NCBI GenBank assembly: GCA_943370615.1
Contig: CALRRQ020000010.1
Coordinates: 30,553 to 94,552 of the forward strand
DNA length: 64,000 nt
DNA from: Rhizobium sp. Q54
Lineage (GTDB): Bacteria; Pseudomonadota; Alphaproteobacteria; Rhizobiales; Rhizobiaceae
Direction of reading: 5' to 3'
Shown: piece by piece, positions 1,268-59,029 of the stretch
Position numbering within the stretch: the stretch's first letter is position 1
How the letters are laid out: every line of letters begins with the position of its first letter
Made by a program: the position numbers and the translations under genes
The notes under the pieces: model-generated
Database searches by the model: none
Told to the model about the DNA's origin: nothing
Seen by the model: only the letters and a program-made list of their open reading frames with translations

Positions 1268-1319
1268 GCGCCCCTGCCCGGTGCGGCGCACAAGCATAAT
1301 CCGCAATTGCAATTCCGCG

Positions 1320-1339
1320 ACCTGTCGCTACCGACAGTT
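1320..1339 (+). promoter_or_regulatory. lux-box-like inverted repeat upstream of the AHL synthase gene
   Basis: ACCTGTCGCTACCGACAGTT has a CTGTC-N6-GACAG dyad and resembles the 20-bp lux box ACCTGT-N8-ACAGGT. It lies 57 bp upstream of the sinI ATG. Confidence 0.7.
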
Positions 1340-1396
1340 TCATTTCATATGCAATTCGCCATCTTTCAGTCGCCTGGACAAACAAGGGAGACTGGA

Positions 1397-2038
1397 ATGA
1401 TCCGGATCATCAATGGCGCCAATCGCAACGAATACCCCGAGGAAATCGCCGCCATGCACCGGCTGCGCAAGCGGGTTTTCCACGATCTTCTGAAATGGGA
1501 CGTAACCGTCAGAGACGACTGGGAAGTGGACCACTATGACGATGCCAACCCCATCTACGTCATGTCCTATTCGCCCGACGGCCATCTGCGCGGCTCGCTC
1601 AGGCTGCTGCCGACGCTCGGTCCCAACATGCTCGACGATACCTTCCCGATCCTGCTCGGCGGGCGGCCGGAGATCCGCAGCGCCGAGATCTGGGAATCGA
1701 GCCGCTTCTGCATCGAGCCGGAAATCTCGCAGGACCGCGCCTCGAACCAGGTGACGATCGCGGCCGCCGAACTGATGTGCGGGGTCGGCGAAATCGGTCT
1801 CGCCTCGGGCCTCAGCCATATCGTCACCGTGACGGACGTCTTCCTCGAGCGCATGTTCCGGCGCATGGGCTGCCCGGGCGAGCGCATCGCCGAGCCGCAC
1901 AAGATCGGCTCGGTCCATGCGGTCGCCGTCGCATGGGAGGTCACGCCGGACCTGTTGGCACGCATGAAGGGCGTCGCCGAGATCGACGGGCCCCTGCTGG
2001 TCGAACCGCTCTCCATCGAGCAGCCCCGCGCCGCCTGA
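1397..2038 (+). CDS. sinI: Acyl-homoserine-lactone synthase (LuxI family, SinI-like)
   Basis: Motifs RLRKRVFHDLLKW, EVDHYD, GSLRLLPT and WESSRFC. A GGGAG RBS precedes ATG 1397. Confidence 0.92.
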   Translation: MIRIINGANRNEYPEEIAAMHRLRKRVFHDLLKWDVTVRDDWEVDHYDDANPIYVMSYSPDGHLRGSLRLLPTLGPNMLDDTFPILLGGRPEIRSAEIWESSRFCIEPEISQDRASNQVTIAAAELMCGVGEIGLASGLSHIVTVTDVFLERMFRRMGCPGERIAEPHKIGSVHAVAVAWEVTPDLLARMKGVAEIDGPLLVEPLSIEQPRAA

Positions 2039-6194: not shown

Positions 6195-6204
6195 CTAAGC
6201 CTAT

Positions 6205-6395
6205 CTTGCCAGGCCGGTCTTCTGACTGGGCTTCGTCTGCACCGCGCCGACCTTCCCGGCCCGAAGAACCAGTGGTTCGAACCGCCTGCGGTTCGTTGGC
6301 GCGAGGCATCCACCTCACAGCGTTGGGCACGTGCCGGAATTCCACCGGCTTCCCGATTCTCCCGCCCCGGAAGGGCGGGCACCTGACGGAAGAAT
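6205..6395 (-). promoter_or_regulatory. Cobalamin (B12) riboswitch
   Basis: The minus strand reads CAGGTGC..GAATCGGGAAGCCGGTGGAATTCCGGCACGTGCCCAACGCTGTG..CCACTGG..GGGAAGG..AGTCAGAAGACCGGCCTG, which are the conserved B12-element blocks. Boundaries are approximate. Confidence 0.92.
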
Positions 6396-6442
6396 GTCTA
6401 CAGCATCACCGCCCGAAGGCAAGACGGCTTGCCCGCGTTTGC

Positions 6443-12732: not shown

Positions 12733-14109
12733 TCAGCCGTTCGCGACCATCATCCGCTTTTCGTCGCGGCCACCCTTCATCCGCTCGGCGAGCAGGAAGG
12801 CCAGTTCGAGCGCCTGGTCGGCATTGAGACGCGGGTCGCAATGCGTGTGGTAACGGTCCTGCAGGGCTTCCGCCGTCACGGCGCGTGCACCGCCGGTGCA
12901 TTCCGTAACGTCATTGCCGGTCATCTCGATGTGGATGCCGCCCGGATGGGTTCCTTCCGCCCGATGGATCTGGAAGAAGCTTTCGACTTCCGACAGGACC
13001 CGCTCGAACGGACGGGTCTTGTAGTTGTTGAGCGTGATCGTGTTGCCGTGCATCGGATCGCAGGACCAGACGACCTTGCGGCCCTCGCGCTCGACCGCGC
13101 GGATGAGGCGCGGCAGATGGTCGGCGACCTTGTCGTGACCGAAACGGCAGATCAGCGTCAGACGGCCGGCTTCGTTGTTCGGGTTCAGGATGTCGATCAG
13201 GTTGATCAGGTCGTCGGCCTGCAGCGACGGGCCGCATTTCAGGCCGAGCGGGTTCTTGATGCCGCGGCAGTATTCCAGATGTGCATGATCCGCCTGGCGG
13301 GTGCGGTCGCCGATCCAGATCATGTGGCCCGACGTGGCATACCAGTCGCCGGAGGTGGAATCGACGCGCGTCAGCGCTTCTTCATAGCCGAGAAGCAGCG
13401 CCTCGTGGCTGGTGAAGAAATCCGTCTCGCGCAGGCTCGGATTGGTCTCCGAGCTGATGCCGATCGCCTTCATGAAATCCATGGTCTCGGAAATCCGGTC
13501 GGCGAGCTTGCGGTAGCGCTCGGCCTGGGGACTATCCTTGACGAAGCCGAGCATCCACTGGTGCACGTTGTCGAGATTGGCATAGCCGCCCATGGCGAAA
13601 GCGCGCAGCAGGTTGAGCGTCGCCGCCGACTGGCGGTACGCCATGATCTGCCGATCCGGATTGGGAATGCGCGATTCCGGCGTGAACTCGATGCCGTTGA
13701 TGATGTCGCCGCGGTAGCTCGGCAGCTCGACGTCGCCCTGCTTCTCGAAGTCGGAGGAGCGCGGCTTGGCGAACTGGCCGGCGATGCGGCCGACCTTGAC
13801 CACCGGCAGCTGGGCGCCGAAAGTCAGCACCACGGCCATCTGAAGGAAGGCGCGGAAGAAGTCGCGGATCGTGTCCGCGCCATGTTCGGCGAAGCTTTCG
13901 GCGCAGTCGCCGCCCTGCAGCAGGAAACCATTGCCTTCGGCGACGTTGCCGAGCGCCTTGGTCAGGCGACGGGCTTCACCGGCAAAGACGAGCGGCGGAA
14001 ACTTGGCGAGACGCGCTTCGGCATCGGCAAGGGCGCCCATGTCCGGATAGGCCGGAACCTGCTTGATCGGCTTGCTGCGCCAGCTGCTCGGGGTCCAATT
14101 CTGTGCCAT
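12733..14109 (-). CDS. aroF: Class II 3-deoxy-D-arabino-heptulosonate 7-phosphate synthase
   Basis: Motifs [40 protein letters not shown] and CDPRLNADQ. Confidence 0.95.
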
Positions 14110-14375: not shown

Positions 14376-15266
14376 ATGCAGGACCGGACCGCCGTCGCGC
14401 GCGAAGAGATCACATTTGCCGCGAAGGACAGCTTTCCTCTCGCCGGCACGCTGTTCCGCGGACATGGCGACGGCCCCCTCGCCCTGATTTCGTCCGCCGC
14501 CGCCGTACCGCGAGGCATCTATGCGCGCTTTGCCGAACACCTGGTGGCCGAACGCGGCTTTCGCGCCGCAATGACCTATGACTATCGCGGCGTCGCCGGC
14601 TCCCGCATCCCGCGCGGCTGGAAGGCCCGGCCGAGCATGGCGGACTGGGCGGAGAAGGACATGGCCGCGGCAGTCGATCGCCTGGAGAGCGTCGCCCCGG
14701 GGCACACCATGGTCGGCGTCGGCCAGTCCTTCGGCGGCCAGGGCCTCGGTCTCTGCGGCCGCGCCAACCGCTTCGACCGCTATCTGATGGTCGCGGTCAT
14801 GTCCGGGCACTGGGCCTATACCGCCGAGCCCTACAAGGTCTTCGCCTCGATGAACCTCGTCGGCGTCCCCCTCGCCCTCCTGACCGGCAGCGTACCGGGC
14901 TGGATCGGGCTCGGGCAAACGCTGCCGGGCACGGTCTTCCGCCAATGGGCGCGCTGGGGCCGCTCGCCGGACTATTTCTTCGCCGACCAAAAGATGGATG
15001 CCGCCCGGCGTTTTGCCGAAGTGCGCACGCCCATCCTCTCGATCGGCGTCGAAGACGACGTGTGGGGCACGCCGAAGGCCCAGGAGGCCATCCTCAAGGC
15101 CTATGTGAATGCGCCGGTCGAGCGGATGCGCGTTTCACCGGCAGTGGCCGGACAGCCCATCGGCCATCTCGGATTCTTTCGTCCGGCCTTCCGCGACAGC
15201 CTGTGGAAACCGGCCGTCGACTGGTTGAGCGACGGTCCTCCATCCTCCACGGCGATCGCCTCCTGA
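14376..15266 (+). CDS. Alpha/beta hydrolase (COG4757-like)
   Basis: Nucleophile elbow GQSFGG, TYDYRG, an Asp (EDDVW) and a His (GHLGFF). GGAGG RBS. Confidence 0.85.
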   Translation: MQDRTAVAREEITFAAKDSFPLAGTLFRGHGDGPLALISSAAAVPRGIYARFAEHLVAERGFRAAMTYDYRGVAGSRIPRGWKARPSMADWAEKDMAAAVDRLESVAPGHTMVGVGQSFGGQGLGLCGRANRFDRYLMVAVMSGHWAYTAEPYKVFASMNLVGVPLALLTGSVPGWIGLGQTLPGTVFRQWARWGRSPDYFFADQKMDAARRFAEVRTPILSIGVEDDVWGTPKAQEAILKAYVNAPVERMRVSPAVAGQPIGHLGFFRPAFRDSLWKPAVDWLSDGPPSSTAIAS

Positions 15267-15524
15267 CGTCCACAGCGCGGATTTCAATCGATTAATGCGA
15301 CAGATTTTCCACTTTCGTCCACACGGCGAAGCAGGCTGGCGTTCATCGAAAAATTGTCATACTCTAATCTTTGGAGGCGAGCGGAGGGCTCGTATCCGGA
15401 GGGTTTACAACAAGCTTCGCGCCAGCCTCGACCGCTATAGCGGATGGGGCATGGGTTTATCCGTGCCGATCGGGACGGCGTGAGTTGCTCCCGCGTATGA
15501 GTAACGATCATGAGGATCAGTGCT

Positions 15525-15638
15525 ATGTCGTATGATTGGAGTGGAGTTCGTACCAGGCGTATTCGGCGGTTGAAGTTCGCGATCGCGTCCTGTCTCGGGC
15601 TGATGGTGCTGGCGGCACCGGTTCTGGCCTTCACCTGA
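15525..15638 (+). CDS. Small 37-aa membrane-anchored peptide (absent from the ORF track)
   Basis: MSYDWSGVRTRRIRRLKFAIASCLGLMVLAAPVLAFT*. A GAGGA RBS precedes the ATG. A basic patch is followed by one hydrophobic helix. Confidence 0.6.
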   Translation: MSYDWSGVRTRRIRRLKFAIASCLGLMVLAAPVLAFT

Positions 15639-15658
15639 AAATAATTCTCGCTCACGAC

Positions 15659-15683
15659 GGAACCCGCGCAGCGTTCCGGCGTT
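15659..15683 (+). promoter_or_regulatory. EcfG/RpoE2 (general stress sigma) promoter
   Basis: GGAAC-N16-CGTT, in the context GGAACccgcgcagcgttccgGCGTTT. Confidence 0.6.
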
Positions 15684-15689
15684 TGAGCA

Positions 15690-15765
15690 TGGTCGGACCG
15701 GCGCCGTGGCGCATGTCCGAGGTTCCTTCCGCACAAATTGCCCCGTCATCGACGGGGCATTTTTC
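15690..15765 (+). ncRNA. Candidate ~75-nt trans-acting sRNA
   Basis: It follows the EcfG motif. It consists of a 5' hairpin TCGGAC..GCGC-CGTG-GCGC..GTCCGA, an unpaired GGTTCCTTCCGCAC linker and an intrinsic terminator. There is no ORF before the convergent gor stop. Confidence 0.45.
15739..15764 (+). terminator. Intrinsic terminator
   Basis: TGCCCCGTC-ATC-GACGGGGCA followed by TTTTT. It may also act on the convergent gor transcript. Confidence 0.8.
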
Positions 15766-15806
15766 GTTCTGGGCAGGCGTTCTGCCGGCAGAGCCGGCTC
15801 GCCCGA

Positions 15807-17195
15807 CTAGACCCGCTCGCCATTGCGGATCCGGTAGCTCGGGCTGTACATCGTCACCAGTTCCTCCGCCGCGGTCGGATGCACGGCCATGGTCCGGTCG
15901 AAATCGTCCTTGGTGCAGCCCGCCTTCAGCGTGATGCCAAGGATCTGCGCCATCTCGCCGGCATCGTGGCCGAGGATGTGCGCGCCGACAACCTTGCGGT
16001 CGGCGGCGTTGACGATCAGCTTCATGATGGTCTTCTCGGCACGACCCGAAAGCGTCGCCTTCATCGGCCGGAACTGGGCGCGATAGACTTCGAGCTCAGG
16101 GAAACGCTTGGCCGCGTCGTCTTCCGACAGGCCGACCGTGCCGATTTCCGGCTGCGAGAACACCGCCGTGGCGATCGTCTCGTGGTCCGGAGAGGTCGGA
16201 TTGTTCTTGTATTCGGTCTCGATGAAGCACATCGCCTCGTGGATCGCTACCGGCGTCAGCTGGACGCGGTCGGTGACATCGCCAAGCGCGAATATGCTCG
16301 GCACATTGGTCCGCGAGTACTTGTCGACGACGATCGCGCCGCGCTCGTTGATTTCGACGCCGGCCGCCTCGAGGCCGAGGCCCTGCGTATAGGGATCGCG
16401 GCCGAGCGCCAGCATGACCTGGTCGGCGACCAGCTCGCCGCTGTTCTTCGTCTCCGCCACCAGCCGGCCGTCGGCGGTCTTGCTCACCCGCTCGATGATG
16501 TCATGGCACAGGATGCGGATGCCCTTGGCTTCCATCGCCTCGTGCAGGCCGCGCCGCATGTCCTGGTCGAAACGGCTGAGGATTTCGGCCCCGCGATAGA
16601 TCAGCGTCGTCTCCACGCCGAGTCCGTGGAAAATGTTGGCGAACTCGACAGCGATATAGCCGCCGCCGGCGATCACGATCGCGCGCGGCAGTTCCTTCAG
16701 GTCGAAGGCTTCGTTGGACGAGATGCACAGCTCGTGGCCCGGCAGCGCCGCATGCGGATTGGGCGCGCCGCCGACGGCGATGATGATCTTCTCCGCGGTG
16801 ACGATCTTTCCCGACTTGAGCAGGCGCACGCTGTTCGGCCCGGCCAGCTCGGCGCGCGTTTCGAGGATCTCGGCGCCGGCATTGTCCAGACCCTTGCGGT
16901 AGAGGCCTTCCAGCCGGGAGATTTCCCGATCCTTCGCCGCAACCAGCGTCGGCCAGTCGAAACGGGTCTCGCCGACGGTCCAGCCATAGCCGGCCGCATC
17001 CTCGAAATGCTCGTGGAACTGCGAGGCATAGACGAACAGCTTCTTCGGCACGCAACCGCGGATGACGCAGGTGCCGCCGAAACGGTATTCCTCGGCGATC
17101 GCCACCTTCTTGCCGAGCGATGCGGCCATGCGGGCACTGCGCACGCCGCCGGAGCCGCCACCGATCACGAACAGATCATAGTCAAAACCGGACAT
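15807..17195 (-). CDS. gor: Glutathione-disulfide reductase
   Basis: Motifs DLFVIGGGSGG, GGTCVIRGCVPKK, GGGYIAVEFA and VHPTAAEE. Confidence 0.96.
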   Translation of the reverse strand: MSGFDYDLFVIGGGSGGVRSARMAASLGKKVAIAEEYRFGGTCVIRGCVPKKLFVYASQFHEHFEDAAGYGWTVGETRFDWPTLVAAKDREISRLEGLYRKGLDNAGAEILETRAELAGPNSVRLLKSGKIVTAEKIIIAVGGAPNPHAALPGHELCISSNEAFDLKELPRAIVIAGGGYIAVEFANIFHGLGVETTLIYRGAEILSRFDQDMRRGLHEAMEAKGIRILCHDIIERVSKTADGRLVAETKNSGELVADQVMLALGRDPYTQGLGLEAAGVEINERGAIVVDKYSRTNVPSIFALGDVTDRVQLTPVAIHEAMCFIETEYKNNPTSPDHETIATAVFSQPEIGTVGLSEDDAAKRFPELEVYRAQFRPMKATLSGRAEKTIMKLIVNAADRKVVGAHILGHDAGEMAQILGITLKAGCTKDDFDRTMAVHPTAAEELVTMYSPSYRIRNGERV

Positions 17196-42760: not shown

Positions 42761-43504
42761 TCAGACATGCACCTCGCCATGGGCGAACTCACCGTCATCA
42801 GGCTCGCGATGCAGCGCTGCGAAGACCACCGAAGAGTGCAGCAGGGCGACGGCCGACAGCACCAGCCAGCCAGGTAGCGGACCGAGCGTGGCATTGGCGA
42901 CCAGTTCTCCGAAGGAATGGACGAACTCCACGGCCCGTTCCTCGGGGAGGAGCTTGGGGCTGGAGATCTTCAGCCCCCAGGCCAGCAGCAGGATGAGATA
43001 CATCCAGACATAGTTGCGGCGGATACGGCGGAACAAGGCCTCGCGGTAGCTCATCAGAAAGGCCGGGCTGCGCAGGCTTGCCGCGATCGCCGCCGCCCAA
43101 TCGGGATTGAGCTCGGCCTGCGGGCTCAGCACCTGGGCGAAATAGTGCCGCTCAAGCTGGCGCACCCGCGCCCGGTAGACATCGAAGAAACGGTAGCGGC
43201 GCGCCTCGATCATCAGAAACAGCGAAATCAGCAGCATAGCGAACAGCACAACCCCGTGATGCGAGGTCGGCGTCGACAGCGACACCGAGAGCAGGCCCGC
43301 GACCACGGTCATGGCCCAGTTCGAGGTACGGTCGATCCGGTCGCGCCAGCTGGTCATCCGGCCGATCTCGCCGCGGTAGTAGTGGATGATCATATTGGCT
43401 TTTTCAACCGAAGTGGCCGGCAAGGCCGGCCCGTCGCCATGCGCCTTGCCTGCCGGCTGGATGACCGTGCCCGAACCCTGGATGATCTCGCCCTGTTCTG
43501 CCAT
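42761..43504 (-). CDS. DUF2270 membrane protein
   Basis: Motifs HYYRGEIGRMTSWRDRIDRTSNWA, EARRYRFFDV and RRIRRNY. Confidence 0.85.
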   Translation of the reverse strand: MAEQGEIIQGSGTVIQPAGKAHGDGPALPATSVEKANMIIHYYRGEIGRMTSWRDRIDRTSNWAMTVVAGLLSVSLSTPTSHHGVVLFAMLLISLFLMIEARRYRFFDVYRARVRQLERHYFAQVLSPQAELNPDWAAAIAASLRSPAFLMSYREALFRRIRRNYVWMYLILLLAWGLKISSPKLLPEERAVEFVHSFGELVANATLGPLPGWLVLSAVALLHSSVVFAALHREPDDGEFAHGEVHV

Positions 43505-43673
43505 GCCGCTGCCCATCTCCAGTGTAACCTTCGTGGTTATCCCGCCTAACGAGGCACGACAAGGCCGTGTTCCGGCACGCACCCCGCCTCGCGCATTGCC
43601 AAAGGCCCGGCGACCCTTTAGAGGCTGGCCAAACGGGCGCCGGCGGTCGGCGCGCAACGACTGGAGTTTCCCC

Positions 43674-58207: not shown

Positions 58208-59029
58208 TTATCTGCGCGCCGTGGCCGCCTTGATCTGCACGAGCGTGTCGAGGTTCTGGTTGACGCGGCAGTAGAACTCTTCGTCGATGAACGGACGCAG
58301 CATGAAGTCGTTCCCGCCGACCTTCAGGAAGCGGGCCGACAGCAGGCGGTTGGTCGAGGACGAAACGCCGATGATGCGGAGCTCGTGGCTGCCGCGCGCG
58401 CCGCGGATGCGCCGCGTCAGCTCGAAGCCGTCGATGTCGGGCATGTTGTAGTCCGTCACCACGAGGCCGATATCAGGATTGGCCTTGAGGATCTCGAGCG
58501 CCTTGGCGCCGCTTTCGGCGGTGCTGACGCGGAAATTGTAACGCTTCAGGCGGCTGGAGAGCAGCGCCCGGGCCGTCGGGCTGTCGTCGACGATCAGCAC
58601 GTGGTGGCGGTGGTTGGTCAGGAAGCGGTAGACCGACTCGCCGAGCATCTCGACGGCGAAGATATTATCCTTGAGGATGTAGTCGACGATGTCCTTGGCG
58701 AGCAGCTTCTCGCGGGTCTGCTCCTGGAAGGTGCCGGTAAAGACGACGACCGGGATGTTCTGGTCGATCAGATATTCGAGCGCCTCGCCGTTCTCCGCGC
58801 CGGGCAGGTTGATGTTCGAGATCGCCAGCGTGACGGCCTCGTCCGACAGCTCGTTGGCGGCCTGCAGGTCCTCGAAGGTTCTGCAGATTTCGACATTGAT
58901 GCCGAACAGCTCCCTCATGCGCGTGCTGATCATGGAGGTGAAGACGTTCGAATCCTCGGCAACAATGATTCGAACATCGGGAAAAGTTTCTCCGGAATAT
59001 TGCATTCCGGAAATGCCTAGAAAAGCCAT
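58208..59029 (-). CDS. Tandem REC-REC response regulator with no output domain
   Basis: REC1 has AISNINLP (Asn at the phospho-Asp position) and REC2 has VTDYNMP. It is paralogous to the N-terminal part of the downstream DGC. Confidence 0.88.
   Translation of the reverse strand: MAFLGISGMQYSGETFPDVRIIVAEDSNVFTSMISTRMRELFGINVEICRTFEDLQAANELSDEAVTLAISNINLPGAENGEALEYLIDQNIPVVVFTGTFQEQTREKLLAKDIVDYILKDNIFAVEMLGESVYRFLTNHRHHVLIVDDSPTARALLSSRLKRYNFRVSTAESGAKALEILKANPDIGLVVTDYNMPDIDGFELTRRIRGARGSHELRIIGVSSSTNRLLSARFLKVGGNDFMLRPFIDEEFYCRVNQNLDTLVQIKAATARR

Follow-up and report, generated by a model that had tools for sequence, protein, structure and literature searches.

In the 64,000-nucleotide stretch of DNA analysed here (the window), the interval between a gene for a 37-residue peptide and the gor gene carries a compact unit (the module) that we read, with somewhat more confidence than doubt, as a small RNA (sRNA) gene embedded in the 3' untranslated region (UTR) of the peptide mRNA, which would possess an EcfG-type promoter of its own and whose product would pair with ribosome-binding sites. 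The internal transcription start site (TSS), the identity of the sigma factor, the involvement of Hfq and the targets are the elements of this reading that we infer. The window comes from a Ciceribacter-like bacterium of the family Rhizobiaceae, with a Gor protein 98% identical to a 'Rhizobium sp.' MAG homologue and 93-96% identical to the Gor proteins of C. selenitireducens and C. naphthalenivorans.

The module stands between two convergent genes. To its right, at 15807-17195 on the minus strand, lies gor, whose naming as such in an earlier sequence-only reading is borne out by a match to TIGR01424 (glutathione-disulfide reductase) of 747.5 bits against a cut-off of 606. The gor stop codon occupies 15807-15809, and the gene ends 42 nt past a hairpin that is probably a terminator common to gor and the peptide gene with its module; on the gor strand this hairpin is followed by just AAUUUGUG, a weak U-tract. 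A strandless wetland metatranscriptome contig of depth about 3 (X16) extends from the 3' end of gor across the common terminator into the linker of the putative sRNA (window 15717-15895), which indicates read-through in one direction, on one strand or the other; an antisense overlap between gor transcripts and the module is possible.

To the left, at 15525-15638 on the plus strand, lies the small-protein gene (37 aa, MSYDWSGVRTRRIRRLKFAIASCLGLMVLAAPVLAFT, plus stop codon), which is delimited by its orthologues, its codon pattern and a GAGGA Shine-Dalgarno (SD) sequence preceding the likely start at ATG 15525; a start at the first ATG, 15510, was rejected. The product, with a basic N-terminus and one hydrophobic helix, is described here as a membrane peptide. 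Of the 80 genome loci, 15 (L001-L008, L011-L014, L016, L017 and L019) have an orthologue of 37-42 aa (MAYDW(S/T)GV...) convergent with gor, as do several metagenome loci. Across the Ciceribacter set the variable columns are distributed 7/3/20 over the three codon positions, and 17 codons vary only synonymously while 7 carry an amino-acid change, a pattern by which the ORF is a genuine, conserved gene; searches of Pfam and NCBIfam with the family returned no match. Since the terminator scan found no terminator between the peptide stop codon (15636-15638) and position 15739, the module is by construction the 3' UTR of this gene, and RNA contigs do join ORF and module, in keeping with the earlier suggestion that the unit belongs to the 3' UTR of the upstream peptide gene.

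The RNA data are assembled contigs of public runs, flat in depth and strandless. Contigs of a close relative of L003 from four bioreactor metatranscriptomes begin 75-114 nt 5' of the peptide start codon and extend to about 6 nt past the U-tract, with a 3' end at L003 position 4424. A rice-paddy transcriptome contig spans window positions 15389-15711, and the predicted TSS is crossed as well by a contig from wastewater and by one assembled from 454 reads of a sludge metatranscriptome. Peptide ORF and module are accordingly transcribed together, in an mRNA of about 360 nt, and the terminator is the 3' end of their transcript. Given their flat depth and lack of strand, the contigs are silent for or against an extra internal start; no short contig was among them, but from standard libraries and assemblies such as these a short RNA would not appear as a contig of its own. 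The Logan 'RNA' runs that cover the window yielded 3-4-kb contigs of flat depth, which probably reflect DNA or pervasive coverage.

Searches by blastn, by motif and by covariance model located the module in 12 distinct sequences of four lineages, all within one sub-clade of Ciceribacter (the window, L001-L005, metagenome loci L081-L083, and L090-L095), a sample that is small and phylogenetically narrow. Lineage A comprises the window, L001, L081 and L002; lineage B, L003, L004 and L082; lineage C, L083/L095, L093, L090 and L094; and lineage D, L005 (C. naphthalenivorans). C. selenitireducens ATCC BAA-1503 is one of the strains with the module. Nowhere else in the 44 sources searched did the covariance model find it. 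Allorhizobium-like relatives keep the peptide gene, with 55-124 nt and a simple terminator hairpin between its stop codon and gor, and C. azotifigens and C. lividus have neither peptide nor module downstream of gor. As distant relatives carry the peptide gene with a plain terminator, the module is a discrete addition of about 100 nt at the level of the genus. The conservation of motif and hairpins proposed for related genomes therefore holds inside the Ciceribacter sub-clade (11 of 12 sequences for the motif) and is absent from more distant relatives; in place of the rhizobial gor-flanking regions at large, it is confined to part of one genus. An Rfam search, likewise proposed, matched the module to no family (alpha-r7/9/14/15/35/45, SuhB, GsrN-like or others): at the gathering threshold only a cobalamin riboswitch elsewhere in the window was reported (RF00174, 105.7 bits, 6195-6401, minus strand), and at E <= 10 the interval 15200-15900 gave just a chance match to the GRIK4 3' UTR element (E = 6.8), located in the 3' flank of gor on the other strand.

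The RNA body consists of a 5' hairpin, a linker and a terminator. The hairpin, H1 (15693-15720, plus strand), is formed by the arms TCGGAC (15693-15698) and GTCCGA (15715-15720) closing an inner GCGC/GCGC stem, as the sequence-only reading described, save that it begins 9 nt after CGTT and not 7. Its distance from CGTT is 8-9 nt in all lineages while its sequence varies among them (UCGGA.../GCGGG.../CCGGAUG...), and in an alignment fitted to the covariance model derived from lineages A, B and D, a procedure that leans towards structure, its 12 pairs are 91% paired, with 6 pairs changed on both sides. Covariation was scored at 0.229, the corresponding value for shuffles being 0.119, and none of 500 shuffles scored as high. 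The proposed check by covariation thus came out in favour of H1, which, on this comparison of sequences, is maintained by compensatory substitutions at a fixed position.

Between H1 and the terminator lies a CU-rich linker of 18 nt (15721-15738, plus strand; DNA GGTTCCTTCCGCACAAAT, RNA GGUUCCUUCCGCACAAAU), a putative anti-SD seed followed by an A/U-rich stretch and recognized by its conservation and its predicted lack of pairing. Within it GGUUCCUUCCG is invariant in lineages A-C, L002 having one substitution at the next base, and L005 reads GCUCCUCCGCC; the CU-rich anti-SD character is kept in every lineage, and for 11 of the 12 sequences the linker of the short RNA is predicted to be unpaired with a probability of 0.70-0.89. 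The intrinsic terminator (15739-15764, plus strand), defined by terminator scan, fold and RNA contig ends, has a GC-rich 9-bp stem with its loop (15739-15759) and then TTTTT; eight of its nine pairs never vary and the 5' arm is invariant in 12/12 sequences. Linker and U-tailed terminator are accordingly both where they had been noticed. Beyond the terminator, agreement with the window falls to 5 of 13 positions in L003 and in L090 and to 0 of 13 in L005. For the 80-nt unit the predicted folding energy is -35.4 kcal/mol, with z = -2.7 relative to shuffles. The statement that no ORF is present needs rewording, because mechanical ORFs do overlap the unit; its substance stands, in that none keeps its frame in relatives, where 2-nt indels in the terminator loop put the overlapping ORFs out of frame, and the unit is non-coding. 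Structure, an accessible conserved seed and a U-tailed terminator together make the module, as predicted from its alignment and folds, a standard base-pairing sRNA architecture.

The promoter motif, GGAAC-N16-CGTT, is present at 15659-15683 as first described: a -35-like GGAAC (15659-15663), a 16-nt spacer (15664-15679) and a -10-like CGTT in the context GCGTTT (15680-15683), all on the plus strand. GGAAC-N16/17-CGTT occurs three times in the window against an expectation of 0.89, and 4 of 100 shuffles reach three; since one occurrence per 64 kb or so is expected by chance, its presence alone is weak, and its weight comes from conservation. All nine motif columns and the exact spacing are invariant in 11 of the 12 sequences, across lineages A, B and C, against 9 of the 45 other columns between the peptide stop codon and H1 (Fisher one-sided p = 9e-6). 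GGAAC is replaced by GACAC in L005 alone and CGTT is invariant in 12/12, while the spacer is always 16 nt long with only 5 of its 16 columns invariant: the window and L090 share 6 of 16 spacer bases and 6 of 20 bases upstream, and in lineage C generally an unrelated spacer and upstream flank go with an unchanged N16.

GGAAC -35 boxes are common across many ECF sigma factors and their regulons, and with that element so widely shared the assignment to EcfG is the best available from the motif, yet not a unique one. The match itself, claimed earlier as the EcfG/RpoE2 consensus, is exact, and the motif described for sigma-EcfG1 of R. etli is identical to it (PMC3892343). For RpoE2 of S. meliloti, mapped TSSs follow the motif at a distance of 5-11 nt, and 26 putative non-coding RNAs (ncRNAs) are preceded by it (PMC3738161); the distance rule would place the start of the present RNA at 15689-15695 on the plus strand. 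For a start 7 nt after CGTT the predicted RNA measures 76-83 nt in every lineage and begins 0-3 nt before the 5' hairpin.

The conservation of the two boxes might have causes other than a promoter, and the first alternative to weigh is a plain structured 3' UTR, which we regard as unlikely, if worth serious consideration. On this account the hairpins stabilize or terminate the peptide mRNA and terminate gor, there is no independent RNA, and the promoter-like motif is conserved for another reason or for none. It agrees with the contigs that cross the predicted TSS and with the lack of a terminator between ORF and module, and the AAAUU before the terminator hairpin doubles as the U-tract of the gor strand. 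L005 also speaks for it, having lost the -35 element and kept hairpin, CU-rich linker and terminator, so that the RNA body is maintained without the promoter in at least one species; there it may be useful, for instance, as a 3' UTR element or a processed sRNA. A structural cause for the motif was sought in two forms. The local GGAAC/GTTCC hairpin that the sequence-only reading had itself offered as an alternative fails, since lineage C lacks it and the change to GATCC in L081 disrupts it. A helix drawn by RNAalifold, GCUCACGACG/CGUUUGAGC, contains CGUU and would favour the plain UTR, but it is not kept in lineages C and D, two to three of its nine pairs are broken in L083 and L005, and lineage C folds otherwise; the predicted folds of the long form vary among lineages. 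No common RNA structure accounts for both GGAAC and CGTT; a promoter acting at the level of the DNA explains the boxes and their fixed spacing, whereas structure leaves unexplained why nine of nine bases and N16 should be fixed over a free spacer. The plain UTR equally fails to explain the invariance of an unpaired 12-nt CU-rich stretch, and relatives terminate the peptide gene by a simple hairpin.

Distinctly unlikely, in our view, is a second alternative, in which an RNA of about 77 nt does act in trans, yet arises by ribonuclease cleavage of the peptide mRNA, and the motif is not an active promoter. Such type II sRNAs, made by processing from a 3' UTR, include CpxQ and SroC. Co-transcription with the peptide ORF would supply the precursor, most predicted long-form folds leave the bases immediately 5' of H1 unpaired, and L005 possesses RNA body and anti-SD linker in the absence of a -35 element. 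Against this, processing would leave the invariance of motif and spacing in three lineages without a reason, and no conserved A/U-rich, RNase E-like site is found, the stretch from CGTT to H1 varying among lineages.

One further observation touches the relation between motif and seed. GGAACC is the exact complement of GGUUCC in the linker, the two coexist in 11 sequences and have changed jointly in L005, so an RNA-level reason for the conservation of GGAAC is possible. From this a promoter-gated switch can be conceived, on which we would place very little weight: GGAACC in the long mRNA would mask the seed GGUUCC, whereas the internally started short RNA would have its seed free, and one DNA segment may thereby serve as a sigma-factor site and, once transcribed, as an anti-seed. 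The constitutive 3' UTR would then be inert and the stress-induced short form active. The predicted masking is inconsistent across lineages, the seed of the long form having unpaired probabilities of 0.29-0.81.

A real promoter whose main effect is exerted in cis on gor, by antisense pairing or transcriptional interference, is improbable to our minds. It would work through stress-induced transcription towards gor or through an overlap of the sRNA with a 3' extension of gor, and it could draw on the closeness of the gor end to the shared hairpin, on the weak U-tract of the gor strand and on contig X16, were that contig not strandless and so shallow. A conserved, exposed CU-rich seed is unnecessary for cis-antisense action, and the strong plus-strand terminator should halt most sRNA transcription before gor. 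Scarcely credible, finally, is a mobile or repeated intergenic element (REP-, RIME- or MITE-like) inserted downstream of the peptide gene. In its favour, the module forms a discrete extra unit of about 100 nt that distant relatives lack at the same locus, and it is rich in inverted repeats, but no second copy was found in the window (blastn), in the 96 loci (pattern search and covariance model) or in 72,556 PLSDB plasmids, terminal repeats and target duplication are absent, and its position is the same in all lineages.

The preferred reading, an embedded sRNA gene with its own promoter, can be put as a sequence of steps. The peptide 3' UTR (15639-15764) of the Ciceribacter sub-clade would have acquired the sRNA gene together with an ECF-type promoter of exact EcfG/RpoE2 consensus, from which transcription would begin at about 15689-15695. 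The predicted product, of about 73-80 nt (some 77 nt), would consist of the 5'-terminal hairpin, the CU-rich anti-SD sequence GGUUCCUUCCGC followed by AAAUU, and the U-tailed terminator. Under general stress sigma-EcfG would raise the level of this short RNA, whose exposed seed would pair, probably aided by Hfq, with GGAAGGA-type ribosome-binding regions of target mRNAs and lower their translation and stability. The same RNA body is also made constitutively as the tail of the peptide mRNA, from which it may be released by processing. Within the window, the seed gave nothing above background against the translation-initiation regions of 58 crude gene calls, nor against gor and the peptide mRNA leader. 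A perfect 12-nt complement of the seed (GCGGAAGGAACC, minus strand) at 12949-12960 lies inside the coding region of a class II DAHP synthase, near its 3' end, and was rejected as a target, being at chance level for a 132-nt query in 128 kb.

An expressed mRNA holds the module within its 3' UTR, and one terminator serves both, the arrangement that characterizes 3'UTR-embedded sRNAs. MicL (sigma-E-dependent, inside cutC) and DapZ are enterobacterial type I sRNAs of this sort, embedded in a 3' UTR and transcribed from a promoter of their own. They resemble the module in being nested in the 3' end of an mRNA, with a shared terminator and an internal promoter, which in the module is predicted; the internal promoter of MicL is moreover an ECF sigma promoter, as proposed here. 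Lineage (at the level of the phylum), sigma factor and sequence all differ, and whereas the promoters of MicL and DapZ lie in coding sequence, the host gene of the module encodes a 37-aa peptide and the promoter would lie in its 3' UTR.

Closer in lineage, the CcsR1-4 RNAs of Rhodobacter are encoded downstream of, and co-transcribed with, a gene for a small DUF1127 protein, and are driven by stress sigma factors. They share with the module the position 3' of a small-protein ORF. Hfq-dependent sRNAs of rhizobia usually act through CU-rich anti-SD seeds (PMC7143759); among them AbcR1/2 (alpha-r15), NfeR1 (alpha-r14) and MmgR (alpha-r8) have, like the module, unpaired CU-rich anti-SD motifs flanked by hairpins and a U-tailed terminator, MmgR being 77 nt long, as is the RNA predicted here (PMC7143759). 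The motif of the module is UUCCUUCC, whereas the AbcR/NfeR1/MmgR/CcsR group has CCUCCUCCC or CUCCCA, and the promoters of that group are sigma-70, RpoN or RpoH promoters where that of the module is EcfG-type; the module is single-copy.

Among RNAs of the general stress response, R. etli ReC64 and the S. meliloti 2011 ncRNAs with an RpoE2 motif (such as SmelC601 and SmelB126) show the same GGAAC-N16-CGTT consensus at the same distance from the RNA start, which is predicted in our case (PMC3892343, PMC3738161), and, like the predicted RNA of the module, they are short, at about 75-105 nt, and come from the same bacterial family (PMC3892343, PMC3738161, PMC7143759). No sequence or Rfam similarity to the module was detected, and ReC64 belongs to the phyR-tcrY/ecfG locus whereas the module occupies a small-protein 3' UTR beside gor. 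For ReC64 both expression and EcfG dependence have been demonstrated (PMC3892343), whereas for the short RNA of the module both are predictions. The sigma-T/EcfG-dependent GsrN of Caulobacter crescentus has in common with the module an EcfG-type promoter, small size and an exposed pyrimidine- or C-rich stretch, by which GsrN pairs with G-rich mRNA leaders (PMC5869019). The two are not homologous, published BLAST hits of GsrN being limited to Caulobacteraceae. The seed of GsrN, furthermore, is in the loop of its 5' hairpin and that of the module in the linker separating its two hairpins; katG is activated by GsrN, which is itself processed to a 5' isoform, whereas the module would resemble an anti-SD repressor; and, by comparison with GsrN, the locus of the module is not, within the window, near regulators of the general stress response.

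If the preferred reading is true, the module would be a clear case, from the alpha-proteobacteria, of a small-protein gene whose 3' UTR houses an sRNA driven by an ECF sigma factor, and it would illustrate how such a unit is added to an older peptide gene. Three promoter/hairpin variants and one loss of the -35 element (C. naphthalenivorans NBRC 107585) would make it a natural test system. It represents no new class, as EcfG-dependent sRNAs, anti-SD seeds and 3'UTR-embedded sRNAs are all established, and with EcfG-dependent ncRNAs so numerous, 26 being predicted in S. meliloti alone (PMC3738161), it adds to a known kind.

The two other occurrences of the EcfG-type motif in the window are both on the minus strand. 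That at 58290-58314 (GGAAC-N16-CGTT) falls within a 273-aa ORF (58208-59029, minus strand) and is probably a chance occurrence. The other, GGAAC-N17-CGTT at 43548-43573, ends 31 nt 5' of the ATG of a gene for a DUF2270 integral membrane protein (42761-43516, minus strand; PF10028, E = 1e-66), with a GGAG SD sequence between motif and ATG, and by this placement it is plausibly a genuine general-stress promoter.

The peptide mRNA has features of its own at the 5' end. Its leader (window 15385-15524, plus strand, 5' end approximate) is delimited by RNA contig starts, at window position 15389 for contig X11 and at 75 and 114 nt 5' of the ATG for the L003 contigs, and by conserved blocks; no EcfG-type promoter was found upstream of the gene. 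In this leader of about 115-140 nt, two blocks are kept across genera (L001-L019 and L083-L090; window 15385-15545), namely AGCUUC(G/A)CGC(C/A)AGCCUCG and the near-invariant GAUCAUGAGGAUC. Pairing of the second block with codons 3-5 (UAUGAUUGG) is possible in 21 of 21 orthologues and would place SD and AUG inside a stem-loop, which suggests translational control of the small hydrophobic peptide, an arrangement that recalls type I toxin mRNAs. Locus L096 encodes, at positions 1301-1453 (plus strand), a homologue of the peptide with 50 aa (MQYDWSGVRTRRIRR...), in a P2-like prophage region, opposite a GH108 endolysin gene and near tail genes (Phage_tail_X, GpU).
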